A stretch of DNA of 64,000 bases from assembly GCA_964342405.1 (NCBI GenBank), contig CAYFGX010000013.1:87098-151097 (forward strand). Direction: 5' to 3'. The translations under genes were made by a program, and so were the position numbers. This stretch comes from an uncultured Verrucomicrobiota bacterium. Its GTDB lineage: Bacteria; Verrucomicrobiota; Verrucomicrobiia; Limisphaerales; AAA164-E04. Positions 5,491 to 56,982 of the stretch are shown here, piece after piece. A model generated the notes under the pieces. That model made no database searches and was not told the DNA's origin. It saw nothing but the letters and a program-made list of their open reading frames with translations. Numbering within the stretch: the stretch's first letter is position 1; every line of letters begins with the position of its first letter.

Positions 5491-5656
5491 TGCTCAAGGC
5501 TTAACAAATCTTCCTGTCGACGGGGAGGAAAAAGCGTGCTGGGAAGGGGCAGTGTGGGGCTGCTCGGCGAGTTGCGAGGGCGTCGGACTGACGGCTTGGT
5601 TCGTGAAATTCGAGTTTGCTTTCAAGCGGTGCTCGCCTGAAAATCGTCCTTTCGCC

Positions 5657-44200: not shown

Positions 44201-47200
44201 GCCAGGAGATCTCTGAGAGTGCGAGCCTAGGGGTTCGATTCTCAACCCTGTTCGTGGACGTGGATGTCACGGGGAACGGAGATGGGAGCTCTTGGGAGAA
44301 TGCATTTACGGATCTACAGGCATCCATTGCAACGGCGGCTGCTCTCAATACCGAGGTCGAAATCTGGGTTGCTGAGGGGACTTACTATCCGGCTGGAATC
44401 AATTCCGGTAACCGGGATGCAAGTTTCATGATGTATCCGAATGTCTCTCTACTCGGAGGTTTTTCTGGTGCTGAAGAAGCGGCCTCTGAACGAGATTGGG
44501 AGAGGAATCTGAGCATCCTCAGCGGAGACATCGGAGTGGCCAATGACAACACGGACAATAGCAAGCACGTGGTGTTTGCATCGGGGCCAGACATCCAAAA
44601 GACCCTAGGTCCCTCGGCAATTCTGGACGGTTTTATCGTTGAGAAGGGATATGGCCCGGGCGGAAGCGGATTACATGTCGATGGGGCTTCGCCGACGATC
44701 AGAAATGTCGTTTTCCGAGGGCATGTCTCAACGGCCAAAGGGGGGGCGATTTACATAGATCGAGAAGTAGAGGGATTTACTCAAGATTCGAGTCCGTCGT
44801 TCGAATCCTGTCGGTTCGAAAACAACACCGCTCAGTCGGGTGGGGGAGCGGTTTTTGGAATCCATATGGGAAATCAACGGTTTCAAGAATGTGTTTTTGA
44901 GAACAATCGAACCCTTTCAGGCCGAGGGGGAGCAGCTAGTTTTGAGACCAAACCCTTTGTGGCCGCTTCAAATCTGCAGTTTCTCTCTTGTTCCTTTGTT
45001 GGCAACCAATCAACAGGTCCGGGGGGAGCGATGGCAGTGGATCAGGAAGATGGGGAGTTGAATCTCCGGAATTGCTTCTTTGGAGGAAATCGAGCCACGA
45101 GTGGTGCCGGTGGTGCGCTTAGCTTGGGGTTGGAAGGGGGGAGCACTAACGAAAGCTTCGTAGTTGGCTGTACCTTTCTTGCGAATCGGGCGAGGTGGGG
45201 AGGAGGGGCAATCTCGAATAGGGTTCGCAATTTCGAGATGCACAATTCGATCATTTGGAATAACCGAGACACTTCCGGGACTGGTGGGAACCGTGCATTG
45301 GATGTTTCGAGTGATCAATCGATCATTCGGCAACAGGTGACCATCAAGTCTTCCTCGCTCGAGAACTATGCGGGGATCAAGGGCTTGATTGAGGAGCGCT
45401 TGGACCCCTATACGCCGACCTCGTTCACCAAGTTTGTTGCGATTGGCAATCTCTCGGTGGATCCACTTTTTGTTCAGATGGGTGATCCTGACGTGGCGCC
45501 GTCAGTTTCCGTGTCGCCAGAGATTAACTGGTGCTCTCCAGTGATTGATCGAGGCTTCACTACGGAGCTCGTCGGGAGTGATCGAGACGTGACTGGCAAT
45601 AGCCGAAGATTTAGACGGGGGGCTCCGGATATAGGTGCCTATGAGCTTCAGGAAGAGCGGATTCCATCAATCTCGATCGTGAGTCATCCTGAAGACGCCT
45701 ATTCATCGCCCAGTGGGACAGCTGTGTTCAGTGTTATTGCGAGAGGAAGCTTCGATTCGTACCTTTGGCAGCAGGATCTTGGTGACGGTGCGGGCTGGAT
45801 GGGTCTGCAGGAGTCAGCTACGTATCAGAATGTTGGCACGGATACTCTGACTATTGTAGGACCGGCCTTGCTACTGGATCAGAGCAGCTATCGGTGCGTG
45901 GTATCAAGTGCCGTTGGATGTGCTCCCATCTCGAGCAATGGGGCGGATCTCTTCGTCGATTCGACGCCCCCTTCGATCACGGGAATGCCGGATACCATTT
46001 ACCTCTATCCTGCCAGTGGTGATCGAAGTGCTGAAGCCACTTGGACAGAACCCGTTGCCAGCGACAACTATGCGGTTGCCACTCTGGTTCACGATGGTCC
46101 CCAGGATCGAGTCTTTGCGGAAGGAACGACCACCGTGACGTATACGGCAACTGACTTGGCCGGGAATGTCAGAACCGCAAAGTTTGATGTCATTGTGACG
46201 CCCCTGATCGCCGCCATTCTTCCTTCCCCAAAGCCAGGCGGAGCCGTCGATCAGAATTCGGAGTTCGTGTCGATTGAGTTCGATCAATCCATAGCCGGAA
46301 GCAGTCTCGGTGATCAATCGGTATTCGTCTATGGCTCCCAGTCCGGTCGGTCCAGCATCGGGAATGGCGGGTTGGACTCGCTGGAGGCGAATGGAGCTGC
46401 GATCAGGATTCAGGATCTCGAGTCCTTTTACCCGGGAGAGTCGGTTCAGGTCACCTTTACAGACAAGGTGATGTCAACTCGGACGCATGCCATGGAACCT
46501 TATATCTGGTCCTTCCAAATGGCCAATCGAAGCAGCGATGGCGGGTTCGATCTCGATCTTGAATCGATCATGCCAAACGCTGATCTGATCCCGAAACTTG
46601 GCGATCTCGACGAGGACGGGGATTTGGACCTGTGGCTGGCAGATCCGATGGGTGGGAGTCGTTGGATGAGGAATGATGGTTCTGGTGTTTTTGCTGATGC
46701 GGGACAGTCAATGGGGAGCGCAAAAGTGAATTCTGTTGAGCTCCTCGATTTAGATGGCGATGGCGATCTTGACGGGGTGGTTCTAACGGAGGTCGGTCTT
46801 GCGATTGAATGTTGGATGAATGATGGGAATGGCGTTTTCACCTCGCGAGTGAACTCGGTCGGGACCGGAGATGTCAGGGATCTTGCCGTAGGCGACTTCA
46901 ATGGAGACGGGGTTCTCGATCTCTTCGCTGCCCATCATGATGCTCCAAGCGAGTATTGGAAGAATGATGGGACAGGATTCTTCTCTGTTGAGTGGTCGAC
47001 ACCCGGTAGTGAACGAGCATCAGGGATTGAGGCGGGGGATCTTGATCTCGATGGTGACCTTGATGTGATATTAACCCGCGTTGACTCGCTAGGCGCCAGC
47101 CAGTCCGACCAGGTTTATCTAAATCGGATGCGGGGAAGTTTCCTCGGACCTTTCGATCTTACTGTCAGCGAAGCGGATATTACGCAGCTCGGGGCGACCA

Positions 47201-50200
47201 TTGATTCAATTGATTCGCCACGAGACGGAGATTTCTCTGTTTCGAGAATGATTGATGGGAATACGGGAACAGATACGTGGTATGAAGATTTCAATAACGA
47301 GCCTCAGAACGCACTGCTGAATATTTCGTTTGATTCGGCCTACTATCTCAGTCGCTACGCCATTACCTCGACGATCCATAGTTGGGCTCCTGCGAGCTGG
47401 CGGGTTTGGAATTTTCAAGATGGCGTTCGCACCGATATCGATGAGCGGTCCGGTCAGTCATTTCGCAATATGGCTACAATCGCGAATGGCGTTCCACCGC
47501 TGAACCCTGTGGACCACGTTTGGCTGTCTCTCTTTGGTCAGTCATTCGCTCGCTACCTGATGATTTCTGAAATTCAATTCTATGGACGTGCGTTGCCTGT
47601 GGCTGAATTGACGAGTCGCCGAATTCTCTTGGCTGATATTGATAACGATTCAGACCTTGATCTGATTAGTGGCAATCCAAGTAGTACCGAGACTCGAGTC
47701 TATCTCAATGACGGGAGTGTCGGGCGAGATCGAGTTCCTCAGTTCTCTCATGGACGGGTTCTCTTTAAGGGGGGGTTGGAGGCTGGATCCTATTTCGGTG
47801 ACTTCGACGGAAATCAATTGCGCGATGTGTTTGCCCTCACAACTGCCCCGAGTGGAGGTTTGGAGTCCCATGTGCTGCGAAATGAAGGTGGCGGAACCTT
47901 TTCGGTTCATCAGACAATTGTGGGTGGAAAGCGATTGGCTCTCGGGGACATCGAAGGCGATGGCGACCTTGATGCGGTGATGGTTGTCGAGCCGGGCTTA
48001 GACGGAGGCGCTTCTGCTGCCGAGTTGATCGCCAGTCGTTACTCCCAGCTTCCTATCGCTTCGGGAACGAAAATTGAAATACTGGAAGATCACAGTTTTT
48101 CGTTCACTCGGACCTTCTTTGAAGACCGTGTCAGCGATGACGGAGCGTTTTCAGGGATCAAGATTGTCGCTCTGCCGGCAAATGGCTCTCTCAAGCTTGG
48201 GAGCGCGACGATTGCTGTGGGACAACTTCTCGATCCAGACCAGCTATCCGAGTTCGTTTACGTTCCGCAACGGGGATTCAGCGGCAAGAACTGGTTCGAG
48301 TGGCAAGCCCGGGATCGATCGGACCAGCTATTTAGTGCCTCTGGCAGGGTTCAGATTAAAGTGATACCGGTCAATGATCGTCCAATCATGAGTTCGATCT
48401 CGGATAGAACCTTCGATATTGCGAAAGCGAATCCTTGGGTACGATATTTTGATCCTAGTCCCGGCGATTCAGACCAAGAATGGTTTATGGAGTTGAGCCA
48501 TGATAATCCTCAGTTGATCCGCTCTGTGACCCGGGATGTGAGTGCGAACGATCGAATCAATCGACGTGGAAAAATTCGATTTGATTTTGTCGAAGGGCAA
48601 ATTGGATCGGCCCTTGTGACGGTTGTTGTCACGGATGATGGAGGCACCGCCCATGGAGGCATCGATCGATTTGTGACCACGTTTACGGTGACCGTTCGAG
48701 ATACGGTGAATCCTGCGATTGCCAATATGCCTGCGGACATTTCCGTCGTCGTTGGTGCGGGATCACGTCTCGTCCCGGTCACTTGGGATCCGCCAACACT
48801 CAATGTAAATTCAGGTCTCACGAACCTGAGCTCTAGTCATTCATCGGGAGATCTGTTCCCCATCGGTGCTACTCCTGTTGTCTATACCGCCAGCGATGGT
48901 TCAGGTAATGAAGAGACGGCAACCTTTACCGTGACCGTGCTGGATCAAGAGTCGCCGATGGTGGTTAACCCGATCTCTTCTTTTGACGTGCCTCTTCCAA
49001 TCGGAGACGTGACGGCGCAGGTCTACTGGGCGCCTCCTGTGTTCGCTGATAATGATCGAATCAAATTGCAAGGAAGCACGCACGTGCCCGGTGACGTTTT
49101 TCCGGCTGGTGATACGGCCGTTCAATACTGGGCAGAGGATCCTTCGGGGAATCGGTTAAGTTCTGAGTTTGTTGTGTCGGTGGTCGACCGAGAGCTTCCC
49201 GTCCTCAGTGGGGTCCCTTCGGATAGGACTCAGGAGACCGATCCGGGTCTTGCTTCTGCGACGGTGACTTGGTTGCCGCCTGTGGCCTCTGACAATTCGG
49301 GGTCCGTTCAGCTCAGTGCAAGTCACTCGCCCGGAGAAATGTTCGCGGTGGGGGAAACGGTTGTGACTTATGCTGCGGTTGATGGAGCGGGAAACCGGAC
49401 GGACGGGGACTTTACGGTTCGGGTTGTGGATCGTGAAGCGCCGAGTTATGCAACGTTTCCCGCAGATATTGATGTCGCAACGGATGCTGGGCTTGCAACA
49501 GCGACGGTGACCTGGGTGGCTCCTGTTGCTTCGGACAATGTTGGGGTTGTCACATCGACCGCGACCCAGCAGCCTGGTGCCAAATTTCCTCTTGGACGAA
49601 ACGTCGTGGTCTATTCCGCAAGGGATGCGGCCGACAATGTCGTCACTCGTTCGCTCGTCATTTCGGTGTTGGATCAGGAACGACCAAGTATCTCCGGTCT
49701 CCCTGCGGATATCTCGATCCCGGTCTCGGCCGGGGCCGAAGGGATGAGTATCGATTGGGTAGAACCTACTGCGAGCGACAATGTTGCGGTAGCGTCCTTC
49801 ACCAGTTCTCATCAGCCTGGGGCGCTCTTTCCGATTGGGTTGACAACAGTGACCTATACGGCCAAGGACTCCGCGGGAAACGAACTGAGTCGTTCCTTCA
49901 AGGTGCAAGTGACGGATGACGAGGCGCCATCTTTTGTAGGGAGCCTCGAGACCGTTGAAGTACCGACGGATCCCGGGCTTGCGAGCGCTCGTGTCACTTG
50001 GGATGCGCCCCTCGTCCACGATAATGGGGAGAGAGTCGCTTTGAGTTATAGCCGAGCCCCGGGATCGATCTTCCCGTTGGGAACGACGACGGTCAATGTG
50101 ACCGCGACTGATATTTCGGGCAATCAAGCGTCCGACAGTTTTGATGTTGTGGTTGTCGACGAGGAAAGTCCTGTGTTCGAGAGTGTTCCCGCTGATATCA

Positions 50201-53124
50201 CGTTGATCCTCGCCTCAGGTGAGGAAAGTGCCGTGGTTACCTGGGAGAACCCGGTCGTGTCTGACAATGTGGCTGTCACAAGCAGTGTTGCCAGCCCGAG
50301 TTCCGGAAGTTCATTCGAGATTGGTGTTCACACCATTACCTTGACGGCCAGCGATCTCGCGGGAAATGAGACCGTGGAGAGCTTCGTTGTTTTTGTCCTT
50401 CCAACCGGAAACATTATCAACGTTTCGCCCTCTGAGAGTGGGGCGATGATTGCTGCGGATTCGAGTCTCTCTCTAACCGGTGACCTGGATCTGGCTTCCC
50501 ATACCGTCGATGAGGACAGCATTCGTGTTCACTTGTCTCAGAGCGGTGGGTTTCGGTCCGGGGATCGGGGTTTCGAGTCTGTTACGGGCGTTAGAGAGCG
50601 GGTGGAGATTCAGCCCAAAAAAGCATTCAAAGCGGGTGAGCGCGTTTCAATCACGTCGACCCGATCACTGAAAAACCGTCTAGGCGGACCGATGAACGCG
50701 CGGACCTGGCAGTTCCTCGCGGGAGTTGATAGTTCGGAGGGAGCCCTGATTCCGCCCCTCGGCCCAGTAGCGGATGCCGACGGAGAAATGGTCGCCTTGG
50801 GTGACTTTGATGGGGACGGAGATCTCGATTGTTTCTTGGCGAGTACTGCTGCTGACCGAGTGCTTCTTAATGACGGCCTGGGAAGTTTTAGTGACACAGG
50901 GCAACGATTGGGACAATCGCCAAGTCAGCCCAAAGACGTGGATCTTGGAGATCTTGATGGGGATGGGGATGTCGATGTTGTGGTGACAGGGCTCGGTAGC
51001 CACGGGACGCAAGTGTATCTGAATGATGGTCAGGGAGGCTTTCAAGATCAGGGCCAAGTGTTTCTCGATGGCGTCTTCTACGCAGCCGAACTGGGTGATC
51101 TTGATTCCGATGGAGATCTCGATCTGTTCCTTGCGAATTACGACGGAGCGGATCGAGTTTACCTTAATGACGGATTCGCCACATTCAATGACGGAGGGCA
51201 AATGCTAGGGAACATCGACCGGGGTGGTGTCACCGGTTGGAGCGTGTCTGTCGATGCGAGCATTGGAGATGTAGACCGAGATGGGGATCTCGACATCGTG
51301 GTTAGTGAGTTCGATGGCTATTGGTATCAATTGACCAATGATGGGACCGGGAATTTCAGTGCGATGCGATTGCCGACAATGCCCTTTGGGCAGCAGAGAA
51401 AGATTGAATTGGCTGATCTGGATGGAGATGGCGATCTGGATGCGATGAGCCTTTACGGGACGGGTTATGCCGTTTGGGGTCGAGATTCTGAAGGAGCCTT
51501 GAGTGTCGTCGATCAGTTTGATCCAGAGGTGATGGATGCCATGGCACTGGGGGACATCGACGGCGATGGCGATCTCGACATGGTGATCAGCGGGCAGGAT
51601 CGAGGCTACAAGTTCTGGATGAATGACGGAACAGGAGCCTTTGAAGTCGGACCTCGAGTAGATGGAAGTTTGAACCTGGGGCTTGCCCTTGGGGATATTG
51701 ATGGTGATGGGGATTTGGATCTGATAGGGAATCAGTCTTGGTGCTACAACCAGCATGCAGTGCTTGCGGATAAGGCTTACACCATTTCCGAAGAGGAGAA
51801 CATCTCGCTGGAAGCAGCTGATTTTGCTGCGCTGCGTGAGGACGGGGACGGTCCGAGTTTCGCTGGGATTCAAATCAGTAAGGTGCCAACAAAAGGGACC
51901 CTTGTGACCGGTGGCGTCACGCTGAAAGACGGTGACGTACTTGTCCCGAGCACAATGCAGAGCCTGGAGTACGTGCCAAACGAAGGAAGTGTTGGGGAAG
52001 ACTCGTTTGAGTGGGATGCCACCGATGGGTTGGCATACTCGGAGAATCCAGCAACCATTTCGATCACCATTACGCCCTCAAGCATTCCCGCAATTGTAGG
52101 GCGGAATATCTTCTACAATAATTCTTCCTTTGATCAGAACGATAGCGCGATCAACGAGCACGATGACTCTGCTGTCGCAACGAACAAGAGTGCTCTTCGG
52201 AACGGCCAAATGGGGACGCTCTCGCATGTGAGCAACTATAGCAAGGGGCTCAACGGGGTCATGATCGACGTGGAAAATATTCCCGACACGATCAGCCTTG
52301 CTGATTTTAGTTTCAAGGTGGGGAACGACAATGATCCCGCCAATTGGGTTGCTGGCCCAACACCCGCTCAGCTTCTCTTTCGTGCCGGGGCAGGGACTGG
52401 CGGTTCTGACCGTATTACTCTGGTATGGATCGATAATAACAGAGACGGCGTTGACGATGTCAATGAGGCTCCTCATGGGAAGTGGATGCAAATCACTGTC
52501 CTCGCAAATGCTTCCACGGGCCTTGCTGCTGATGACGTGTTCTACTTTGGGAATGCCATAGGGGAAACAGGGAATGCCCCTGGAAGTGCCCGGGTGACGA
52601 CTGCTGATGTGCTCTTGGTTCGAAACAATCCAAAGTCGTTCCTATCACCGGCCTTGATCACAGATCCTCATGACATAGACCGAGATGCGCGAGTGAACGG
52701 GGTCGACGTGCTGTTGGCCAGGAATCACATGACAAGTTTTCTCAATGAGCTTCAACTTATTGATCTCACCGGTTTGATCGCAGCCGATTCAGCGATAGGT
52801 GGTGGAGTAGAAGTGGACGCATCGCTCCCAGCTCAAGCTGAGATTGCCAAGGCGTTAGATGCTTTGACTGCCCGAGAATCCATCTCCGAGGTGAGGCCTC
52901 CAAGCCTTTCTTTGGATCCGTCGGGACAGATTAAGATTACCTTCCCGGGCGTCTCTGGAGGAAGTTATTCGGTTTTCTATAAGGACGGCATGGATCGGCC
53001 TGACTGGCGTGAGTTAAGCGCAGATGTTGTCGAAGTGTCCCCGGGGTGGTTTGTCGTCATGGACTCCACCGAGTCTCCAAGTCGCTTTTACCAATTTAAG
53101 TTGAATCATTCAGAACATGAATAG
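29227..53124 (+). CDS. giant secreted multidomain surface/adhesin-like protein (7,965 aa): signal peptide, 10x [right-handed beta-helix (Pmp-like) + Ig-like], HYR x8, FG-GAP/VCBS propellers, discoidin, cadherin-like domains, C-terminal dockerin-like module
   Basis: Single uninterrupted 23.9 kb ORF. GTG start at 29227 is the only in-frame start upstream of the signal peptide (LICLRSAVVGLALLLSIGAEGA). Domain evidence is given in the separate domain features. Confidence 0.9.
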   Translation: MFDFDSILRRGFRALTGDADINFKPKRELICLRSAVVGLALLLSIGAEGAVTRVYVDQSAAAGGDGTSWQAAFRELRYALLALGPNPDVLTEQEPVEIRIASGTYLPAATSSSEDRYKSFDFSGWYDMTVIGGFPVGGGGLATVNPRTNVTVLSGDLDGDGTPENNSYNVVTAKDNINLTFQGLVIEHGNTVYRKDDVAGVQKNQIVNLQRARTEAALRGFDLRGNLPSIGPGWIKIQAPNLSSVYNSRTPFGGWNEGDLPWLKKLSSASASPATWAFNQELFISSNRISDENGHEFPDPFNPLMKLDAIERYEGDFQIERPFSSGRRVFPFDIIPFEEDGMPGPRFEERNKDYLFAASLDDVNPFSHVAKPGFDRVSGLNRAYHDAIHRRGNGGGVRSFRCWRLLFQDCVFRFNSADAYGGAVFSKHSSVTYQNCVALRNRSGASGGAFCHLEDSFKFFECEFLKNEAVEGGGLYTLWEGDDYKSPSSDDLVGDAIALSQDTSRFARNVKRGLIAGAIRAAARDTVIQAVKNQFKNEAKEALFETFKDKYKSELTGKEIAKNLAKAVAYQGTKYFHQWLEEEGCGNNSDCIAYARFMNNVFKIVDLVLYWTDVFNLFNELKDFAEETNKSPDEVEEERRRAEEARLAAVLLERRQDFNSEARSIVRDCLFVENVSALGGVGIRSLHTNIRIDRTQFLNNRSTGASLLVGERRDDYEWGGAIHGSHYCDFLVSNCLFRGNRTHSGLASAIILRVNSSLFAEYCTLHNNKADEGFGSAFYGLTGVSSWFENSIFWGNRNSEFDVVGPADIQSITYDALPGEIKTRMANNGLDASDFGSSVAHLGDSFIESYPGSLGEGVQDKGGNTGVDPVLTADSRPQWNSPLLGYIPIRPVELREYSEKIEYIGNGFYGAVTNPGDVKDVLGVPRLHGSYADIGCFERAVVPARIYVGGAGVVGGQRGDSWSSGMADLATALDVIDHIVPAETEIWVREGVYQSPKDDGDPQDIAFRTHGHRNLRLYGGFEGDEMLADPSAFHLDVMEVCCRAELPVEGRNLIVFASVENQSEDWIRIFDSIGERVADFAVGSDVAWNFDKTRLSRSTPNLDQMRTIFGKLKSLLGLKQPDISLCLDGESDWIFGAEFDARLDLMEVERVSEIPDRGRSGIVVSRIIESGLLHFRVFDCVGRVVVDGLQTELDDPSDLVDSISLDLAGYWSSNPNTSEKADAIEEVMAFAQNEVGLKVRDSSSGTHQTTISGEHGASGDPSDNRKRLFSIDHDGRRRLKTLVVDGVTFKGAREGAFGLNPDSTQTLFRDCRFIENYNLSPTGRGGAIENQGDLTVFGSEFVGNYARKGGAIHSLGGRTTVLSSRFIDNVAEYRPNDAALIFEASAAGGAIYLDHSPATVQSSIFHGNQAIGIKAVGGAIAVSPDTQGTHADTFLTHCTIVGNQVVSGAGRVGAKPLGGGAGLFVNAFDYTQGATFIDGSIFWDNEVQGSEQVYPLPERQIDTQGKGYEILNSVVQGAATDALANVRSVNPSFDATSGDEFRLEDFSPLLNEISDSSPSFSGDAFDLLGRPTDDDFTVTLSPLDSLQEKRLFGAKRDLGAFELQSASASIGVPQSFYDAGLQLFGLSSVGFNNGPGERIRWQQFDGSGDPLLNSGDWIDLPDGADLDYVSSDSRSLLFRRNVSNYGDRYYRAVITRANGREIFSPPALFDAPILYVDHDAAGNNTGKSWTHAFTSLQDALAAARVSAGCREIWVAQGTYYPTGTFDRTISFEMVNGVGIYGGFEGGEALRVDSQRDASRTILSGDIGARNIKADNSYVVVRNAVAHGSRATLGPASILDGFVIEEGNANGQVFVADSQGGGMLNERSSPTLRNLIIQSNYANEGGGVANLDAEPTFINCTISNNTAEYGAGMFSRGGRINLDRCFIASNTAHARGGGLQSIDAIVALSFCEVRSNDGGGILHSRGQFDIRDSLVATNVGVHDAAGILVSDGGTGSVINCTVVYNRLDASGTPGLSRSGDDGQLFRVANSILWGNHFTSSRISEASANHQISGALNQTKCLVQNGGFGFDPLFVDDENGNYRLSVFSPAINSGDNAEVTDTLNSRDLDGGDSFRVQETTVDLGCYEFQTQTGGQLYFSSLPQSGAIESGKDLSMRLGNGQSAESFIIERIKDGVVATVIDDSFHVIRRNSNGLSLTLVSLDPSLDGAQYRFRDTSSESGFVSDVYELNVPSPIFVDGRVASSGNGRSWVSAKKTIRAALSVAVSGQQIWIAEGTYYPVDQASTDRTASLSLPQGVSLIGGFAGDEVSLSEREWERHPTRLSGDIGQVGVADDNSRVLLQVIGDVHGTPVSLETVIDGLIFSDGNQNLTRWDAALNLKGASPLVRNCRFENNRGYLGGAVTLDNSDAILFNCLFAGNLARNGGGGIYLRSGAGQIINCTVVGNQGGTISGGGGVLADASFTGQIVNTILWSNTDRRETNTGPSTVEQMQVRGTTMVSHSIVQGLDALAGSNNLGIDPLFLDLSLEDYRLNPFSPAVDAGDPAARLWDGLDAAGSSRVFNRGGGGIVDIGAYEAQSSARAPIGLVQSYDVGVITGSGRLDVKTLSGEANRYSWQVDRGDGAGFVALAGDGFHRITRTDTQLTLEILGAIQSMRGYRYRYVVANTTPSFVGSPVRLEVVPPVRVDSTIVSKLTAAQLDTRIEDGSSWLNAYVSLTDALNQVSRGGEIWVAEGIYYPSDPTAGRRDQAFAMRPDVGIYGGFKGFGANAESLRSERDPVLNRSILSGDIGVLNDPTDNSFNVIRNQGLTEALDRDSVLDGFVIVGAYREASANFDLSDGGAIHNQSNHPTIRNCVIEGNLGQRGGGIANYDSAPLISRVEVRNNRAATGAGLYNHYSSPRIENCLIAGNTASGDANRFGGGVFNDVSSAPTFLFCTVSANQSPFGGAGIGNDSSASPIIANSILWGNLSGDIAGTSLFGGTPTVSFSTVQASPSPAGTGNQNFNPLFQAWRTQDYSLSPFSPALDSASTSVAMEDTAFLDLSGAPRVSGAQSDLGCYELDLSSGRKSPIMLTSAPEQGFSMGSTEFPVIGHPAALVQWEMDLTNDNVVSFVPLIESPNRQLRTTASASTLEVIEPTAAASFRFKAVQNGEVFVSEAFSVAVMDPILVKSDASGVEDGKTWGTAFRTLTSALAQASLGQEIWVAAGVYFPTSGRDASVAFEMKDRVAIYGGFDGTESNRDSRDWLSNVTVLSGNIGELSVESDNSLHVLSNRDLSRRAVLDGFVIEGAFGGAAMLNRNASPTVRHCVFRDNQSLVTGAGIVNVLGAPLIEASSFYRNRGLRGGALESLGAGSFPEVVNSLFYENEAVSDGGAIFNEDGGRFVNVTVAFNRTGELVGGMDNAKANAVTVSNSILWGNQPSFSNRSQVLSGQIRKGTILQSIVQGMAIPGEDGNSGLDPLFVNPAFGMFQLSGFSPGIDAGNSSYLDDRFSKDLMNRDRRFAGTTVDLGAYEFQGARVGDIGLFQAFTDTTLLGGGTLRVRVPSGQGAKVEWLQDVGAGFVPVVMDSVHSVLIDDESSALRILNPAIDLNGARYAFQIVVPSAGTFQSGSATLKVFAPLLVDASVTPVASGRDTNGVYQSLQQALAEVSEGGAIWVAAGTYTPTGIDSGDRSASFGLVPGVSVLGGFESGQLPAQWSAASRDPDQFVTRLSGEIGDPNLRTDNSFRVIDNDGRTRDLGERTILDGFVVEGGYGTNGVGMRNVDASPVIRDCVFRDHYASASGAAVENQGTSAPLIAACRFYDNESGSTGGAISNFGSGNPLVVNSVFQGNRSGGAGGAIYSEALAAVINGTFTLNHSGGLGGAVFGLTPDSVEVVNSILWGNTATEEVSVEQGQVFGAAVTDSIVHGLEKLAGNRNIALDPLFIDPSQYDLRLSVYSPAVDQGAAGKDPSGQTTDAWKQPRVFGSQVDLGAFEVPSVSPGALGIIEGYSVVELAEGETVLRLRVAAGSVGSIVWQVDRGAGFEDLVSDAVHELLVSGEVVQLKIVSPSFSMNGFRYRYRVNGTAPEFVSFPVTLKVAPAIRVSQATGSDDNDGLSWGQAVKSIQKALSLVTTNGEIWVAAGTYYPTDGGNTGRGTSFQFGQRVSVYGGFRGDEGTRAARDWRLNPTILSGDIGNIGDDSDNSYHVLEHRSSEGLNGTHLDGVIVQDGHASGSGYQQDYGGGIFVHSGTLTLRNTMIRENKASWRGGAVAIEQGKLQLEGALIYNNSAVSSAGAIVLLSGDVTLTNTTVTENTSGSRTAGIDVFPGGRLTVSNSILHNNRTSGAASDLETQQLSGNASVFNSIVEGLNRYRSANSFAIDPLFADPENDDFSLSAFSGAIGRGSNASLPTGYTTDLDGVARVLPANDRTVDMGAYEYSGAAAGGLEVVQFPSFDSLIGGGELKVVVTPSFRNRIIWQIDRGDGTFVDLVADSVHSVVFGADSSTLKVSFPDAHLAGARYRFRVSGTSPEYVSESASLRLLPVLKVDADAAAGGDGLSWTTAFRTIQEAFAALPTVGLREIWVAEGTYYPSLTNARGDSFELQNNLRIYGGFQGGDDSEALSDRDWKSYPTILSGNIGSSSSSSDNSKRIIHNRGSSQINASAVLDGFVIEAGNGDNGAGIYNYAASPTIRNCHFRNNVVTSLGGAMYCIDSSPIVSDCIFENNEAQMGGSVRLSSGAAEFRRCQFLGGRASLGGGLSVGNSPALFENCLFAGNHATGSGGNYGGAIAVSYVDATGKTRFLNCTVVDNTSAGGAAGIELSPTPFGPVEVHNSILWNNLARGVANFDSQLKGNGITIRHSMVNGISDFGGNIASPPDFVAPSQKDYRLTACSFGINQGNNAAIPLPSLDLAGNARLFDGQAESDVVDMGAYELAGEVPANRLVLNASPVSRGVQEGGNASFSVTAVGDAVTYQWQSDDKGNGVFANLSDTAPYSGVTSSSLSVTAIPATLNGTQYRCVVTAASGCQEISESASLGVRFSTLFVDVDVTGNGDGSSWENAFTDLQASIATAAALNTEVEIWVAEGTYYPAGINSGNRDASFMMYPNVSLLGGFSGAEEAASERDWERNLSILSGDIGVANDNTDNSKHVVFASGPDIQKTLGPSAILDGFIVEKGYGPGGSGLHVDGASPTIRNVVFRGHVSTAKGGAIYIDREVEGFTQDSSPSFESCRFENNTAQSGGGAVFGIHMGNQRFQECVFENNRTLSGRGGAASFETKPFVAASNLQFLSCSFVGNQSTGPGGAMAVDQEDGELNLRNCFFGGNRATSGAGGALSLGLEGGSTNESFVVGCTFLANRARWGGGAISNRVRNFEMHNSIIWNNRDTSGTGGNRALDVSSDQSIIRQQVTIKSSSLENYAGIKGLIEERLDPYTPTSFTKFVAIGNLSVDPLFVQMGDPDVAPSVSVSPEINWCSPVIDRGFTTELVGSDRDVTGNSRRFRRGAPDIGAYELQEERIPSISIVSHPEDAYSSPSGTAVFSVIARGSFDSYLWQQDLGDGAGWMGLQESATYQNVGTDTLTIVGPALLLDQSSYRCVVSSAVGCAPISSNGADLFVDSTPPSITGMPDTIYLYPASGDRSAEATWTEPVASDNYAVATLVHDGPQDRVFAEGTTTVTYTATDLAGNVRTAKFDVIVTPLIAAILPSPKPGGAVDQNSEFVSIEFDQSIAGSSLGDQSVFVYGSQSGRSSIGNGGLDSLEANGAAIRIQDLESFYPGESVQVTFTDKVMSTRTHAMEPYIWSFQMANRSSDGGFDLDLESIMPNADLIPKLGDLDEDGDLDLWLADPMGGSRWMRNDGSGVFADAGQSMGSAKVNSVELLDLDGDGDLDGVVLTEVGLAIECWMNDGNGVFTSRVNSVGTGDVRDLAVGDFNGDGVLDLFAAHHDAPSEYWKNDGTGFFSVEWSTPGSERASGIEAGDLDLDGDLDVILTRVDSLGASQSDQVYLNRMRGSFLGPFDLTVSEADITQLGATIDSIDSPRDGDFSVSRMIDGNTGTDTWYEDFNNEPQNALLNISFDSAYYLSRYAITSTIHSWAPASWRVWNFQDGVRTDIDERSGQSFRNMATIANGVPPLNPVDHVWLSLFGQSFARYLMISEIQFYGRALPVAELTSRRILLADIDNDSDLDLISGNPSSTETRVYLNDGSVGRDRVPQFSHGRVLFKGGLEAGSYFGDFDGNQLRDVFALTTAPSGGLESHVLRNEGGGTFSVHQTIVGGKRLALGDIEGDGDLDAVMVVEPGLDGGASAAELIASRYSQLPIASGTKIEILEDHSFSFTRTFFEDRVSDDGAFSGIKIVALPANGSLKLGSATIAVGQLLDPDQLSEFVYVPQRGFSGKNWFEWQARDRSDQLFSASGRVQIKVIPVNDRPIMSSISDRTFDIAKANPWVRYFDPSPGDSDQEWFMELSHDNPQLIRSVTRDVSANDRINRRGKIRFDFVEGQIGSALVTVVVTDDGGTAHGGIDRFVTTFTVTVRDTVNPAIANMPADISVVVGAGSRLVPVTWDPPTLNVNSGLTNLSSSHSSGDLFPIGATPVVYTASDGSGNEETATFTVTVLDQESPMVVNPISSFDVPLPIGDVTAQVYWAPPVFADNDRIKLQGSTHVPGDVFPAGDTAVQYWAEDPSGNRLSSEFVVSVVDRELPVLSGVPSDRTQETDPGLASATVTWLPPVASDNSGSVQLSASHSPGEMFAVGETVVTYAAVDGAGNRTDGDFTVRVVDREAPSYATFPADIDVATDAGLATATVTWVAPVASDNVGVVTSTATQQPGAKFPLGRNVVVYSARDAADNVVTRSLVISVLDQERPSISGLPADISIPVSAGAEGMSIDWVEPTASDNVAVASFTSSHQPGALFPIGLTTVTYTAKDSAGNELSRSFKVQVTDDEAPSFVGSLETVEVPTDPGLASARVTWDAPLVHDNGERVALSYSRAPGSIFPLGTTTVNVTATDISGNQASDSFDVVVVDEESPVFESVPADITLILASGEESAVVTWENPVVSDNVAVTSSVASPSSGSSFEIGVHTITLTASDLAGNETVESFVVFVLPTGNIINVSPSESGAMIAADSSLSLTGDLDLASHTVDEDSIRVHLSQSGGFRSGDRGFESVTGVRERVEIQPKKAFKAGERVSITSTRSLKNRLGGPMNARTWQFLAGVDSSEGALIPPLGPVADADGEMVALGDFDGDGDLDCFLASTAADRVLLNDGLGSFSDTGQRLGQSPSQPKDVDLGDLDGDGDVDVVVTGLGSHGTQVYLNDGQGGFQDQGQVFLDGVFYAAELGDLDSDGDLDLFLANYDGADRVYLNDGFATFNDGGQMLGNIDRGGVTGWSVSVDASIGDVDRDGDLDIVVSEFDGYWYQLTNDGTGNFSAMRLPTMPFGQQRKIELADLDGDGDLDAMSLYGTGYAVWGRDSEGALSVVDQFDPEVMDAMALGDIDGDGDLDMVISGQDRGYKFWMNDGTGAFEVGPRVDGSLNLGLALGDIDGDGDLDLIGNQSWCYNQHAVLADKAYTISEEENISLEAADFAALREDGDGPSFAGIQISKVPTKGTLVTGGVTLKDGDVLVPSTMQSLEYVPNEGSVGEDSFEWDATDGLAYSENPATISITITPSSIPAIVGRNIFYNNSSFDQNDSAINEHDDSAVATNKSALRNGQMGTLSHVSNYSKGLNGVMIDVENIPDTISLADFSFKVGNDNDPANWVAGPTPAQLLFRAGAGTGGSDRITLVWIDNNRDGVDDVNEAPHGKWMQITVLANASTGLAADDVFYFGNAIGETGNAPGSARVTTADVLLVRNNPKSFLSPALITDPHDIDRDARVNGVDVLLARNHMTSFLNELQLIDLTGLIAADSAIGGGVEVDASLPAQAEIAKALDALTARESISEVRPPSLSLDPSGQIKITFPGVSGGSYSVFYKDGMDRPDWRELSADVVEVSPGWFVVMDSTESPSRFYQFKLNHSEHE
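29387..45955 (+). repeat. ten diverged tandem units, each a ~380-aa parallel beta-helix followed by a ~95-aa Ig-like domain
   Basis: Each unit starts with a [IL]xVD..(G)DG.SW..A...L..AL......EIWVA.GTY.P block and a GGF.G box. It carries GGAI/FxxN (chlamydial Pmp-type) repeats and NxxxxGN turns. It ends with VDLGAYE[FL]Q, followed by an Ig-like segment with W[QE]xDxGxGF...RYR. Units start near 29387, 32060, 34360, 35920, 37260, 38700, 40050, 41430, 42760 and 44250. Confidence 0.8.
30750..31230 (+). other. AT-rich, Lys/Glu-rich predicted alpha-helical insertion inside beta-helix unit 1
   Basis: Local drop in GC. The encoded peptide NVKRGLIAGAIRAAARDTVIQAVKNQFKNEAKEALFETFKDKYKSELTGKEIAKNLAKA...EEERRRAEEARLAAVLLERR is unlike the surrounding Gly/Asn/Ser-rich beta-helix. 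Confidence 0.5.
45960..46210 (+). other. HYR (hyalin repeat) domain 1 of the giant protein
   Basis: PSITGMPDTIYLYPASGDRSAEATWTEPVASDNYAVATLVHDGPQDRVFAEGTTTVTYTATDLAGNVRTAKFDVIVT matches the HYR pattern (W..P.A.DN.........G..F..G.T.V.Y.A.D..GN). Confidence 0.7.
46560..47995 (+). repeat. FG-GAP/VCBS calcium-binding repeats (46560-47110 and 47620-47995) flanking a discoidin (F5/8 type C) domain (47160-47600)
   Basis: DxDxDGDLD loops (LGDLDEDGDLDLWLA, LLDLDGDGDLDGVVL, VGDFNGDGVLDLFAA, AGDLDLDGDLDVIL, LADIDNDSDLDLISG, LGDIEGDGDLDAVMVV). Discoidin-like RMIDGNTGTDTWYEDFNNEPQNALLNISFD...ARYLMISEIQFYGR. Confidence 0.65.
48700..50405 (+). repeat. array of seven tandem ~81-aa HYR domains
   Basis: Seven consecutive units share [VI]TWxxPxxSDN...hxxG..FPxGxTxVxYxAxDxxGNxxxxxFxVxVxDxExP (for example ATVTWLPPVASDNSGSVQLSASHSPGEMFAVGETVVTYAAVDGAGNRTDGDFTVRVVDREAP). 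Confidence 0.75.
50760..51760 (+). repeat. seven consecutive FG-GAP repeats (predicted 7-bladed integrin-alpha-like beta-propeller)
   Basis: LGDFDGDGDLDCFLA, LGDLDGDGDVDVVVTG, LGDLDSDGDLDLFLAN, IGDVDRDGDLDIVVSE, LADLDGDGDLDAMSL, LGDIDGDGDLDMVISG and LGDIDGDGDLDLIGN recur at roughly 50-60-aa intervals. Confidence 0.75.
52420..52750 (+). other. dockerin-like module (two Ca-binding-loop + helix segments) near the C-terminus of the giant protein
   Basis: WIDNNRDGVDDVNEAP and DIDRDARVNGVDVLLARNHM resemble dockerin type-I 12-residue EF-hand-like loops followed by a helix. Similarity is inferred by eye only. Confidence 0.4.
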
Positions 53125-53821
53125 AACACAGACCGCTTCACTAGGAGTTCCTTTGAGTATGAGGCTAGCACCAGATTTCCTTCGCTGGATCGGCTTGCTG
53201 TTGCTGCTGCTTGTCAGTTCCGGCAAGGCTCAAGCTGCTTTCATTATTGTTGTGGGCGATCATGAGCTAGCGCCAGGGCTGCCCGACCAAAAAGTAGAAC
53301 TCTATTTCAGCAATACCGCAGCACCGCAGGAGATTGCTGGATTCGACTTCAACATTCAAATGGGGGATGGAGGACCAGAGGCGCCGGGTGGTGCTGTTGA
53401 TGGCCCATCAATTACGAATGTGGATCTAAAAACAAATACGATCTTTGGGGGAGTGGCTGCGACTCAAGTCATGGCTCCAAGTTTGGATCAAGTGCGAGTG
53501 GAGTCGATCACCTTGGATGCAGGGACGGTCTCCGTTCCCGTGGCGACGGATTCGAGTCTGCTGATGGCTACGGTGACCGTTGACACAACCGGCTTCAATA
53601 CACTAGGTGCGAGTTGGTCCTTGAAGATCAACAACACGCTGAACGGGAACTCACAATTCCTAGATGGGGGTGTTAGTGCCGTCGCGATCTCGGAAACTGC
53701 TGGTTCGATCACGATTGCAGCCGTACCAGAGCCTAAGGCTTTTGCTTTGGTTGCGGGGGGCTTTGTCGTTCTCTTCAGATTGTGGGGGCGGAGGCGCGAA
53801 GGGCTCGGCTCGTCTGCCTGA
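53117..53821 (+). CDS. PEP-CTERM sorting-domain protein (exosortase substrate), overlapping the giant gene stop
   Basis: 234 aa. ATG at 53117 overlaps the giant TAG stop (ATGAATAG). N-terminal signal (LLLLLLVSSGKAQA). C-terminus VPEPKAFALVAGGFVVLFRLWGRRREG is a PEP motif, TM helix and Arg cluster. Confidence 0.7.
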   Translation: MNRTQTASLGVPLSMRLAPDFLRWIGLLLLLLVSSGKAQAAFIIVVGDHELAPGLPDQKVELYFSNTAAPQEIAGFDFNIQMGDGGPEAPGGAVDGPSITNVDLKTNTIFGGVAATQVMAPSLDQVRVESITLDAGTVSVPVATDSSLLMATVTVDTTGFNTLGASWSLKINNTLNGNSQFLDGGVSAVAISETAGSITIAAVPEPKAFALVAGGFVVLFRLWGRRREGLGSSA

Positions 53822-53856: not shown

Positions 53857-56800
53857 CTAGGCTTGGTGGGGGAGTGGAAACCGAATCACCCATTCTGTGC
53901 CATTGCCCACGGAGGAAATGAGTTCGCAAGAGCCTTTGAACATTGTCGCTCGCTCTCGAATCCCACTGAGGCCAAAGCCGTGCTGCTCCCTAGTTTTTTC
54001 GAGATCTGGATCGAATCCTCGCCCATTGTCCTTGATTCGCAAGGTGATCATTTGATCTGTAATCAGGAGGGTGACGATCACTCGAGTGGCCTCTGCATGT
54101 TTGAGGCAATTGTTCATCGCTTCTTGGATGATTCTAAAGAGGTTGATTTGCTTTTCCGCCGAAAGATTCTTTGGGATAGGTTCGATCTCATGTTCGATCT
54201 CAATCTCACTCGCATCGCCGATCTGATTGAGCATGCCTTGAATGGCTTTCGTCAGGCCGAGTCGATCGATCTGGTAGGGGCGGAGATTGTTGGCAATACT
54301 TCGGACTTCCTGGATTGAGTCCAAGCTGATGTCCGATATCTCCTGAAGTGCTGTCCCCATCGCATCCGGCCCTGTGGGTGTGCGGAGTGTGAGAGCGGCT
54401 CGGTTCTTGATGACGAGGAGGTTCTGTTCGAGGCTATCATGCAGTTCTCTGGCAATCCGTTTTCGATCAGCTTCCTGTCGCGAGAGCATATCTCGGGCGA
54501 AGCGCTCTTGCTCAGTTTTTCGACGCTTGTCGCGACTGATACGAGTAAGGAATCCCAGTGAAACGAGCCCCATGAAACCAAGTGCGCCTAGGGCCTGGAA
54601 TCCCGCTGACCTCCAAATGGCGCCTTCTACCTTGAGGGTTAATGTCGTGTCGTCTTCGTTCCAAAGTCCGCTATTGTTGGCTGCCGAGGCTTGAAACTGA
54701 TAGTTGCCAGGAGCGAGATCTTGCAACACGACTGACTGTTGAGGGCCGATATCGGTCCAATCTGAGCTGATCTCTTTCACGCGATAGCGAAATCGAATCT
54801 CGTCTGGTGCCGAAAAGTTGAGGCCGGAGAATTGAATTTCTATTCTTTCTACGTGGGAAGGAACTCTAAAGGTCGGATTGTTTCGGTGCTGGGATATTGG
54901 GTTTGGACGGCCGTCGAGGGAGAGATTTTCGAGGAGAACTGTGGGCGGAGTCTTGTTCAGTGGGAGAGTTTTCGGGTTTACATAGCATGGTCCCCCGCTC
55001 GTAGCGAACCAGAGATTGCCATCGTCCGTGCGAAGGCTGGAGGGGTGTCCGGCGTTGCATTGGAGTGAGGGAAGGCCATCATCTGTCGAGTAGGAGTTGG
55101 CGAACAAATATGAGATCTCTCCGTTGGCGACGCGATCGAAATTATCGAACGAGACTCGATGGATCCCATTGTAGGAACCGAACCATAGACTCCCTAGATG
55201 GTCATCGATGAGTGTGCTGATCTCATTGGAAGGAAGACCATGCTCGGTGGAGTAGTGCTGAAAGGTGCCGTGGCGGAATCGATAAATACCTTGTCCTCCG
55301 GTTCCAAACCAGATGTCGCCTGATTGTCCGATGGCGATTGCTCTGACTCGGATGGGGGCGACCTGTGAGGCCTTGGAAACGTGTTCGAAGCGATCGGCTT
55401 TGTAGCGGTAAATGCCGTTATCGCCGGTTCCAATCCAGACTGTGCCATCGGGCCCGCAAGCGAGACTCAACACCTCTTTTGTTGGCCGGTTTTCGTAGGC
55501 TGTGAGATCCATTGGCTGATTGTCCTCAATTACAGCGAGTCCCCCATCACTGCTGCCAACCCAAAGCCTGTTTTCCAGATCGTAGCAGGTCGCGACAATT
55601 CGTCTTCCCAATCCGATGTCGAATGCATCAATCGGTATGAAGGCTCCATCCTTGAGTGAAAATGTCGATGCCGATCGGCGGCGTTGATTTGATTTGCTTA
55701 GGCCGGTTGCATATTTTCCACCGAATACGTCTCCCATTTGGTTGGCCGTTAGCGTCCAAATGTCTCCTCTGCCCTGATGGATCGCATTATCAAGAGTGGT
55801 GCCATAGAGCTGATTTTTTGGAATTTCCAAAATTCCTCTAATTGTGCCGAGAAGGAGGTTTCCGGATTTTTTTTGAAGAAACGAACGGGCTTTGGTGCCC
55901 TCTGGAGGAAGGCCGCTGATTAAGCGGAATTTGCGTTTGCGAATCCTGCTGAGTCCCTTGTCAGCTAATGTAGCATTGGCCGTCCAGAGCGTGCCCTCGG
56001 CATCGGTGACTAAAGGTCCGCCAATGTCCAGCGGCGTACTCTGGATGTGGTATTGGCCCTGGTCGTCTGGAACGTAGTGTTCTTGGGCCGTAGATTTGGT
56101 TCTTTTCACCCAAAGTGAACCGTCACTGACTTCAAGGATGCTAGTGGCCTTTTTCAGTTCCTGGTCTTCTTGAATGATCTCACCTGAGATAATTCTTTCC
56201 CCATTATACCTCAAGATTCTTCCATCGACCGCAAGCCAGATGCCGCCCGATCTCGCGGGTGTAGGTCCCGCCGTGATCAGTTCACTTTCGTTAAAGACAT
56301 GTTGGGTGGACATGTTGTCCTCTGTCAGAGTTCCCAACTTATTTCCACGACTCCACCATGTCGTTCCTTGATGGTCCGTTACCGCGGTGAAAGGTGGGTT
56401 CTGTTCCCCGGGCAAAGGTGTGAGAACTGCGTGCTCGGTTGGACGGGCACCCTTCATAGACATGAGGCGGCGCTGTCGTGTGTCACGGTTCAGACTCGAA
56501 TACACCAAGGTGCCGTCGGGACGGATTGTATGAAGTGAAAGGCGTGTCTCTGGATTCGTCCGCAGGCCCGTTGTGCGGTGGAAAGTCCCTTTGCTGTATT
56601 GAATGATCTCGTCTCGCACATTGAGCCACAGCGATCCATTTGCTGCGGGAATGATACCGCTCACTCTTCCATGGGGGAAACCCGGTGTGTTCGCGTCAAA
56701 AACCGTGAACTCTTGCCCATCGAACCGGGCGAGTCCGTAGAAAGTGCCAAGCCAGATGTAGCCATCTGTGGATCTAGCAATACTGAGAATTGGGCTGCCA

Positions 56801-56982
56801 GGGATACCGTCGTTAACGTTCCAAGTGTCTGCGATGTAGCCGCCCTCTAACTCAAAATACGATTTTCCCCTGAGAACTTCTTCGGGGATCATAGCGAGCA
56901 GGAATCCAATGAGGAGTAACTTCAGAATCCTTAGGGCGAGATGACCGGAGTTTGATTGAGGCATCGGTGATGTCGAGACCAT
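53857..56982 (-). CDS. sensor histidine kinase, NarL-type (HisKA_3 + HATPase_c), with large periplasmic two-component-regulator-propeller (Reg_prop) and Y_Y_Y domains
   Basis: 1041 aa. Signal/TM, then repeated WxGTxxGLxxY propeller blades, a Y_Y_Y-like region and a TM helix (LGALGFMGLVSLGFL). HisKA_3 H-box (RIARELHDSLEQNL) and N/G-box ATPase (DNGRGFDP, GFGLSGIRER). Confidence 0.9.
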   Translation of the reverse strand: MVSTSPMPQSNSGHLALRILKLLLIGFLLAMIPEEVLRGKSYFELEGGYIADTWNVNDGIPGSPILSIARSTDGYIWLGTFYGLARFDGQEFTVFDANTPGFPHGRVSGIIPAANGSLWLNVRDEIIQYSKGTFHRTTGLRTNPETRLSLHTIRPDGTLVYSSLNRDTRQRRLMSMKGARPTEHAVLTPLPGEQNPPFTAVTDHQGTTWWSRGNKLGTLTEDNMSTQHVFNESELITAGPTPARSGGIWLAVDGRILRYNGERIISGEIIQEDQELKKATSILEVSDGSLWVKRTKSTAQEHYVPDDQGQYHIQSTPLDIGGPLVTDAEGTLWTANATLADKGLSRIRKRKFRLISGLPPEGTKARSFLQKKSGNLLLGTIRGILEIPKNQLYGTTLDNAIHQGRGDIWTLTANQMGDVFGGKYATGLSKSNQRRRSASTFSLKDGAFIPIDAFDIGLGRRIVATCYDLENRLWVGSSDGGLAVIEDNQPMDLTAYENRPTKEVLSLACGPDGTVWIGTGDNGIYRYKADRFEHVSKASQVAPIRVRAIAIGQSGDIWFGTGGQGIYRFRHGTFQHYSTEHGLPSNEISTLIDDHLGSLWFGSYNGIHRVSFDNFDRVANGEISYLFANSYSTDDGLPSLQCNAGHPSSLRTDDGNLWFATSGGPCYVNPKTLPLNKTPPTVLLENLSLDGRPNPISQHRNNPTFRVPSHVERIEIQFSGLNFSAPDEIRFRYRVKEISSDWTDIGPQQSVVLQDLAPGNYQFQASAANNSGLWNEDDTTLTLKVEGAIWRSAGFQALGALGFMGLVSLGFLTRISRDKRRKTEQERFARDMLSRQEADRKRIARELHDSLEQNLLVIKNRAALTLRTPTGPDAMGTALQEISDISLDSIQEVRSIANNLRPYQIDRLGLTKAIQGMLNQIGDASEIEIEHEIEPIPKNLSAEKQINLFRIIQEAMNNCLKHAEATRVIVTLLITDQMITLRIKDNGRGFDPDLEKTREQHGFGLSGIRERATMFKGSCELISSVGNGTEWVIRFPLPHQA

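Follow-up and report, generated by a model that had tools for sequence, protein, structure and literature searches.

How do bacteria of the Planctomycetes-Verrucomicrobia-Chlamydiae (PVC) group attach giant surface proteins to their cells, and what do proteins with a PEP-CTERM sorting signal bind? We addressed these two gaps at a locus within a 64,000-nucleotide (nt) stretch of DNA, hereafter called the window, from an uncultured Verrucomicrobiota bacterium (GenBank assembly GCA_964342405.1, contig CAYFGX010000013.1, positions 87,098 to 151,097 of the forward strand). At this locus, the gene for a giant surface protein overlaps a small gene whose product combines a signal peptide, a domain with a predicted cohesin fold (here called COH), and a PEP-CTERM tail. 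The giant protein carries a conserved module near its C terminus (here called MOD), one half of which is dockerin-like. On balance, we think it probable that the two genes form a surface-display unit, in which envelope-held COH tethers the giant protein via MOD. COH and MOD belong to a wider system of Planctomycetota and Verrucomicrobiota, of which this locus is a single case. Together with its recurrence in these two phyla, the locus provides a concrete, testable receptor-tag pair.

A giant surface-protein gene overlaps a small PEP-CTERM gene

The two genes and their parts are listed below, with the basis for each assignment in parentheses. AF2 denotes AlphaFold2, ORF denotes open reading frame, HMM denotes hidden Markov model, and TAIL is our name for the last domain of the giant protein.

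29227..53124, + strand: giant surface-protein gene, 7,965 amino acids (aa) (ORF list and Pfam scan)
29308..29367, + strand: hydrophobic segment ELICLRSAVVGLALLLSIGA of the giant protein, residues 28-47 (hydropathy scan)
52090..52557, + strand: beta-sandwich half of MOD, giant residues ~7622-7777 (structure search)
52558..52773, + strand: dockerin-like half of MOD, giant residues 7778-7849 (sub-threshold Pfam match, family profile)
52573-52629, + strand: dockerin-like repeat 1, NAPGSARVTTAD plus helix, with a degenerate Ca loop
52672-52728, + strand: dockerin-like repeat 2, DIDRDARVNGVD plus helix, with an intact D1-D3-D5-N9-D12 loop
52876..53118, + strand: TAIL, a beta-sandwich of ~85 aa ending ..SRFYQFKL (AF2, TAIL HMM search)
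53117..53124, + strand: 8-nt overlap ATGAATAG, containing the small-gene start codon and the giant-gene stop codon
53117..53821, + strand: small gene, 234 aa, ATG start
53159..53236, + strand: signal peptide MRLAPDFLRWIGLLLLLLVSSGKAQA, small-protein residues 15-40 (sequence; AF2 helix at residues 19-33)
53237..53716, + strand: COH, cohesin-fold beta-sandwich, small-protein residues 41-200 (AF2, Foldseek, alignment)
53717..53818, + strand: PEP-CTERM-type sorting signal (AAVPEP, transmembrane [TM] helix KAFALVAGGFVVLFRLW, basic cluster GRRRE)

The ORF list and the sequence place both ORFs where an earlier note on this DNA had put them, with the ATG of the small gene lying within the last codons of the giant gene. 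Public gene calls also start the small gene at the ATG at position 53159, which yields a 220-aa product and leaves a 34-nt gap after the giant stop codon. In orthologous loci of 70 to 80% identity (L001/L003 and L004), the overlapping ATG is kept, and the position of the internal start is occupied by TTG. Because its homologues reach E=1e-113 and its product has a confidently predicted fold, the small ORF is a real gene. Neither the junction nor the DNA preceding the giant gene yielded informative results in promoter and terminator scans.

The small protein begins with a 14-residue extension that precedes the signal peptide, for which cleavage is predicted after AQA (..GKAQA followed by AF); an equivalent N terminus is present in every family member in the alignment. 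Residues 41-200 form a beta-rich stretch of 160 residues that is rich in G, A, V, T, and S. The C terminus has the PEP-CTERM layout of PEP motif, TM helix, and basic cluster (VPEP-KAFALVAGGFVVLFRLW-GRRRE), and P204, E205, and P206 are invariant or nearly invariant across the family alignment. Scans of the small protein against Pfam and NCBIfam returned no domain family, and PEP-CTERM families were sub-threshold at most: PF07589 did not match at E<=1, and the NCBIfam PEP-CTERM families that matched the C terminus all scored below their cutoffs. PF07589 did match 12 of 22 homologues (best 4.6e-6). The signal peptide, beta domain, and VPEP-TM-RRR tail found in the sequence correspond to the beta-rich PEP-CTERM protein that the earlier note had described.

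The small protein is predicted to have a cohesin fold

Twenty-five homologues of the small protein were retrieved, all from Verrucomicrobia or Pirellulales; each has a signal peptide and a COH domain of ~160 aa, and most end in VPEP-TM-RRR. The alignment revealed the hallmark motifs QxGDGGP (also QVGDGGP)..GPxITxVDL..TIF and AT(V)TxDTTGF. In several homologues, a Pfam-significant dockerin separates COH from the PEP-CTERM tail, and in two others (P0014 and P0016) a small C-terminal domain ending in RFYRVVL takes the place of PEP-CTERM. Using the homologue alignment, AF2 modeled the small protein as a confident beta-sandwich, with a predicted local distance difference test (pLDDT) score of ~85-90 in the core. 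When this model was compared to the PDB with Foldseek, cohesins filled 50 of the top 50 places. The best match was 5nrm_A (E=5e-7, probability 1.00, target-normalized template modeling score 0.70), and the best single-module cohesins had target-normalized scores of 0.62-0.74. The top matches included the anchoring cohesins ScaE (2zf9, 4iu2/4iu3) and SdbA (2bm3), as well as noncellulosomal cohesins of Archaeoglobus fulgidus (2xdh) and Clostridium perfringens (2jh2, 2w1n). In the predicted structure, the domain has the nine-stranded flattened beta-sandwich (jelly-roll) of the cohesin fold, which bears out the suggestion that the small protein could be cohesin-like.

An exhaustive search with the COH profile retrieved 2,701 cluster representatives (clusters at 50% identity) at E<=1e-3, including 630 at E<=1e-30. 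Among the best 144 new representatives, 103 were small and 41 were large. A PEP-CTERM-like ending was present in 89 of the 103 small representatives, and the large ones had up to 4-5 copies of COH.

The giant protein ends in a widespread module with a dockerin-like half

Pfam recognizes a beta-helix, 8 HYR, 10 FG-GAP_3, and Big_9 domains in the giant protein, and these precede the C-terminal MOD and TAIL. A hydropathy scan detected a single hydrophobic segment (residues 28-47), which probably serves as a signal peptide for Sec or as a signal anchor, and no C-terminal anchor. The last 348 residues have >300 homologues. Within this region, the ~225 residues of MOD are conserved at 45-50% identity among proteins with unrelated N-terminal parts, which include subtilisin P-domains, lamin-tail, FN3, PKD, Calx-beta, RHS, metallophosphatase, LamG, and beta-helix domains. 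In this respect, MOD behaves like a tag on unrelated proteins. In some of these proteins (P0091, P0133, and P0107), MOD is immediately followed by a PEP-CTERM signal, and many others stop exactly after a conserved LxLIxxP.

MOD is composed of a beta-sandwich and two dockerin-like repeats, and AF2 predicted the whole as a rigid unit (pLDDT ~97 over model residues 1-230). The beta half is covered by no Pfam or NCBIfam family, and a structure search bearing on its likeness to known X modules gave generic Ig-like folds only. The dockerin-like half occupies the last ~72 residues of MOD as two loop-helix repeats, with AF2 helices at model residues 175-182 and 208-216, spaced 33 residues. In repeat 2 of the window copy (DIDRDARVNGVD), every Ca-ligand position of the loop (1, 3, 5, 9, and 12) is occupied, and the family consensus of the loops retains positions 1, 5, and 12.

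We compared a profile of the 72-residue segment (A3) to the PDB and matched 11 sequences, 10 of which are genuine dockerins. These matches included dockerins of Clostridium thermocellum and Clostridium cellulolyticum; the best was 4fl4_A, C. thermocellum Cel9D (E=1.6e-4), in which both repeats aligned at native spacing. Pfam Dockerin_1 (PF00404) matched 8 of 41 MOD family members at E<=0.01 (best 3.4e-6), a count that rests on E-values, not on Pfam's bit cutoff. These comparisons show homology, at the level of the family, between the duplicated ~22-residue Ca-loop-plus-helix segments and genuine dockerins. The dockerin-like module that the earlier note had placed near the giant C terminus is present within the range it gave, but the window copy does not reach Pfam's dockerin threshold (see below).

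A disordered linker of ~40 residues separates MOD from TAIL, which is restricted to a subset of MOD proteins and has no Pfam or NCBIfam match. TAIL ends in RFY(R/Q)(V/I/F), and, with one exception, matches to its HMM end 1-11 aa from the end of the ORF. We also found TAIL in L004, L010, L027, L048, L051, L068, L073, L087, L088, L097, and L134; its carriers are either MOD proteins or COH proteins without PEP-CTERM. TAIL may be an uncharacterized C-terminal sorting domain of Verrucomicrobiota.

COH and MOD are linked across genomes

We collected 58 independent loci with COH relatives from contigs of one genome per species, spanning Verrucomicrobiota, Planctomycetia, and Phycisphaerae, and searched their six-frame ORFs with COH and MOD HMMs. 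COH was linked to MOD, either as the next gene downstream or by fusion, in 31 of the 58 loci. In >20 loci, COH was encoded by the gene immediately downstream, in the same orientation, with mostly 75-230 nt between the upstream stop codon and the start of the COH domain. In ~10 loci, the two domains were fused in a single ORF, in both orders, and some of these fusions were followed by a separate COH gene. Unlinked MOD matches numbered only 7 in 934 kb of flanks, which corresponds to a chance of ~0.6% per locus; against this background in the same flanks, the binomial probability of at least 24 of 52 loci being linked is ~4e-40. Large COH proteins show the same association, with MOD in the same chain in 19 of 41, C-M and M-C tandems, and COH-MOD linkers as short as ~5 aa. 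In protein P0039, a Pfam-recognized cohesin directly precedes MOD, in the position taken elsewhere by COH.

Stop-start overlaps (ATGA, -4 nt, or -8 nt) were found in the window, in L001 and L004, and in seven distant loci (L008, L017, L023, L031, L036, L041, and L048). Their recurrence in distant lineages supports the proposal of translational coupling or coexpression. The gene of a distant homologue of the small protein (P0016, 38% identity) follows, at a distance of 15 nt, that of an FG-GAP protein of >4,210 aa, and two other COH homologues do not adjoin large genes. The earlier note had asked whether PEP-CTERM genes follow giant genes elsewhere: COH does recur beside or fused to MOD, in 31 of 58 loci and two phyla, and what it goes with is the MOD module rather than a large gene. 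A link specific to giant genes was rejected, given that the upstream MOD partners range from ~400 to >7,900 aa.

The loci also differ in layout. At L073/L074, a COH gene at 7136-7663 (- strand) and a MOD+TAIL gene on the other strand converge, an exception to the codirectional layout. Proteins that resemble scaffoldins, with as many as 4-5 COH and alternating COH-MOD-COH arrays, occur in L022, L024, L036, L040, and L052 and as P0146-P0149 and P0156. These proteins, some of them followed by a separate COH/PEP-CTERM gene, suggest hierarchical assemblies.

A tethering model and its alternatives

Under the model we favor, the small protein would be exported by Sec and fold as a single cohesin-type COH, and an exosortase would process its PEP-CTERM signal so that COH remains at the envelope. 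Export of the giant adhesin-like protein, with its beta-helix, HYR, FG-GAP, and Ig domains, would rely on its N-terminal signal. MOD, at the end of this protein, would consist of an Ig-like beta-sandwich packed on paired Ca-binding loop-helix repeats and would dock noncovalently on COH, probably in a Ca2+-dependent manner, and the giant protein would thereby be tethered to the cell surface. Coexpression of both proteins would be maintained by the stop-start overlap. In the larger system, MOD is carried by many proteins with unrelated N-terminal domains, and one to five COH by fewer proteins. We infer COH-MOD binding, its Ca dependence, exosortase processing, and the final attachment site; tethering is the best supported explanation, as three independent arguments converge on it: the partners resemble a known binding pair, their genes are operonically adjacent with overlaps, and the domains are repeatedly fused. 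The computational checks run on the anchoring-pair interpretation of the earlier note were all favorable except for the Pfam dockerin threshold.

Several observations weigh against this model. On the receptor side, Pfam cohesin PF00963 matched 0 of 22 family members at E<=0.1 and did not match the window protein at E<=1. An hhalign comparison of COH with the Pfam-positive cohesin segment of P0039 gave a probability of 0.4%, and a search of PDB sequences with the COH family profile (A1) found no cohesin and nothing relevant. Because the Pfam model and the profile comparison miss the family, COH is cohesin-like by fold only, and homology to cohesins is not shown by sequence. On the side of the tag, repeat 1 in the window (NAPGSARVTTAD) retains only Ca-ligand positions 1 and 12. 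The earlier note had listed failure against Pfam's dockerin threshold as an outcome that would refute the pairing, and formally this is what we found, because Dockerin_1 scored the window copy at 17.4 bits (E=0.005) relative to a cutoff of 22.9. That match covers model positions 2-23 of 57, corresponding to the second repeat only, and a Dockerin_1 scan of the whole 348-aa C-terminal piece of the giant protein gave no score for the window copy.

Other counterpoints concern sorting and gene content. Family scans found no exosortase gene within the 64-kb window, and the window has no other PEP-CTERM ORFs; where PEP-CTERM proteins end up is, to our knowledge, not generally settled. TAIL may be the giant protein's own sorting signal, such that the earlier claim that this protein lacks an anchor or sorting signal of its own holds for a C-terminal anchor but perhaps not for sorting. 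In addition, ~20 COH loci have no MOD nearby. In the reverse test, which used 67 metagenome MOD loci with enough downstream sequence, COH was fused or downstream in only 12 (18%). We therefore rejected the notion of a dedicated COH for each MOD protein. The same proportion implies many tagged proteins and fewer receptors, by analogy with dockerins and cohesins in cellulosomes.

Three other explanations of the locus can be set beside tethering. COH and MOD might interact without anchoring, either because the small protein is a chaperone- or pilotin-like partner in export or folding, or because the two domains polymerize head to tail into a matrix or fiber with the PEP-CTERM protein as a building block. 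The C-M-C and C-M-C-C-M arrays in single chains would permit such daisy-chaining, and the ~5-aa linkers suggest a packed supradomain. A matrix role would also fit the general association of PEP-CTERM proteins with exopolysaccharide (EPS) or floc matrices, the presence of NCBIfam PepA among the weak matches of the small protein, and two EPS chain-length-determinant genes located 7.5 kb downstream of the pair. However, the dominant architecture among small COH proteins (signal peptide, one COH, and PEP-CTERM, in 89 of 103) is the layout of known anchoring scaffoldins, and chaperones rarely bear sorting anchors. We regard interaction without anchoring as unlikely.

Slightly less likely again is that the two proteins do not bind each other directly and are simply cotranscribed, coregulated components of the surface or matrix, with the giant protein sorted through TAIL or MOD by a secretion or sorting machine. 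TAIL is indeed sorting-tag-like, given that it is strictly C-terminal and replaces PEP-CTERM on some COH proteins, and MOD lies at or near the C terminus of many unrelated proteins, as do the C-terminal domains of type IX secretion systems. Most MOD genes, moreover, have no COH neighbor. Coregulation alone, however, explains neither the repeated in-frame COH-MOD fusions in both orders nor why each partner looks like one half of a known binding pair. As for chance adjacency, or a small ORF that is not a real gene, the ambiguity of the start codon is the sole point in its favor. The homologues to E=1e-113, the 2,701 representatives, the confident fold, and the linkage P of ~4e-40 refute it, and we assign it a negligible probability.

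Tethering at this locus thus remains our preferred reading. Its extension is more tentative and, in our view, falls a little short of an even chance: COH and MOD may be the receptor and tag of a general surface-display system of Planctomycetota and Verrucomicrobiota that works on cohesin-dockerin principles, in which exosortase-sorted single-cohesin anchors and multi-COH scaffolds would hold hundreds of MOD-tagged proteins (adhesins, peptidases, RHS toxins, and phosphatases).

Comparison with known anchoring systems

The pair is probably a variant of cohesin-dockerin anchoring, and its closest analogues are ScaE/CttA, SdbA, and the "planctosome" hypothesis. ScaE of Ruminococcus flavefaciens consists of a single cohesin and a C-terminal sortase signal and holds the adhesin CttA via the X-module-dockerin of the latter; cttA is reportedly directly upstream of scaE. 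The arrangement proposed for the window resembles this type III system in that a sorted anchor with a single cohesin-fold domain would hold a cargo through a C-terminal module with a dockerin-like half. The systems differ in that the ScaE anchor uses LPXTG and sortase, whereas the anchor here would use PEP-CTERM and exosortase in a diderm PVC bacterium, and in that the cargo is a cellulose adhesin there and a 7,965-aa HYR/FG-GAP protein here. MOD is reminiscent of the X-module-dockerin dyads found in cellulosomal systems of types II and III, although its beta half is not demonstrably an X module. COH has no detected sequence similarity to Pfam cohesins.

In C. thermocellum, the cohesins of SdbA, OlpB, and Orf2p hold the X module and type II dockerin (X-DocII) of CipA. 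The likeness would lie in a C-terminal beta-sandwich packed on a dockerin or dockerin-like segment of a very large protein, which docks on a cell-bound cohesin. The C. thermocellum proteins, however, are anchored to a Gram-positive wall by surface-layer homology domains rather than by PEP-CTERM, and in the window the first Ca loop is degenerate and there is no cellulolytic context.

The "planctosome" hypothesis proposes a noncellulosomal cohesin-dockerin surface complex in Planctomycetes that includes HYR- and lamin-tail-domain (LTD) proteins (Andrei et al. 2019, ISME J, PMC6461901). In that model, cohesins and dockerins are detectable with Pfam, an LTD protein serves as the anchor, peptidases take part, and the complex is proposed for one planctomycete family (PMC6461901). 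The earlier note had considered cohesin-dockerin anchoring of a noncellulosomal giant protein to be new in this lineage, a claim that this prior hypothesis softens (PMC6461901). LTD, P-domain, and HYR proteins are also found among the MOD carriers. By contrast, the system described here would have a Pfam-invisible receptor with a predicted cohesin fold and a PEP-CTERM anchor, and its pairing rests on adjacency and fusion conserved in two phyla.

Noncellulosomal cohesin and dockerin modules are reportedly widespread, according to papers that cite work of Peer et al. from 2009. The noncellulosomal cohesins of A. fulgidus (2xdh) and C. perfringens (2jh2, 2w1n) have the cohesin fold outside cellulosomes but, unlike COH, are recognizable by sequence. 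We know of no PEP-CTERM anchoring or conserved partner operon for such modules. The PEP-CTERM family is concentrated in environmental diderms, and, as far as we know, its members have no established binding partners. The PEP motif, TM helix, and Arg cluster of PEP-CTERM/exosortase sorting (Haft et al. 2006, 2012) are common to the small protein. In contrast to PEP-CTERM proteins generally, the passenger fold here predicts a specific protein ligand that is encoded next door. Within the library that it covered, our literature search found no paper joining PEP-CTERM, or bacterial exosortase, with cohesin or dockerin.

The recurrence of COH and MOD in Verrucomicrobia and Planctomycetes suggests an unrecognized means of holding large surface proteins. 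The pair brings together a ~2,700-cluster family with a predicted cohesin fold that Pfam's cohesin model misses and a C-terminal module of ~225 aa on varied proteins. If COH binds MOD, cohesin-dockerin anchoring would reach diderms, where it would use an anchor of the exosortase type, proteins now called "hypothetical" would be annotated by the thousands, and a new orthogonal affinity pair would be available for protein engineering. If a general display system exists, it would represent a diderm counterpart of cellulosome anchoring, and PEP-CTERM proteins would for the first time have a defined protein ligand.

Genes surrounding the pair

The neighboring features in the window are as follows.

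28391..29095, + strand: NarL/LuxR-type response regulator, immediately preceding the giant gene (Pfam, NCBIfam)
53857..56982, - strand: Reg_prop/Y_Y_Y HisKA_3 sensor kinase, convergent (Pfam)
61318-62658 and 62837-64000, + strand: Wzz/EpsF-like chain-length-determinant paralogues, the second running off the window end

The Y_Y_Y/HisKA_3 kinase neighbor is kept in L001, L002, L004, and a JGI contig, and close orthologues retain the 8-nt overlap together with the convergent kinase. A response regulator and a kinase bracket the pair, and the conservation of the kinase suggests dedicated two-component control; the response regulator may control the giant/COH pair. For the Wzz/EpsF-like genes, the best NCBIfam matches were EpsF and "XrtA system chain length determinant", both far below cutoff. 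As a weak hint, these genes may mark the start of an EPS locus, possibly exosortase-associated, at the window edge.

Two PSCyt1/PSCyt2/PSD1 proteins and a DUF1501 protein, encoded at 128-2989 (- strand), 5330-8515 (+ strand), and 8526-9953 (+ strand), belong to families typical of PVC bacteria, in keeping with closest homologues that are assigned to Verrucomicrobia. Upstream of the pair, 15038-17377 (- strand) encodes another FG-GAP_3 protein (FG-GAP_3/UnbV_ASPIC), which at 779 aa is far smaller than the giant protein and has no MOD or COH.

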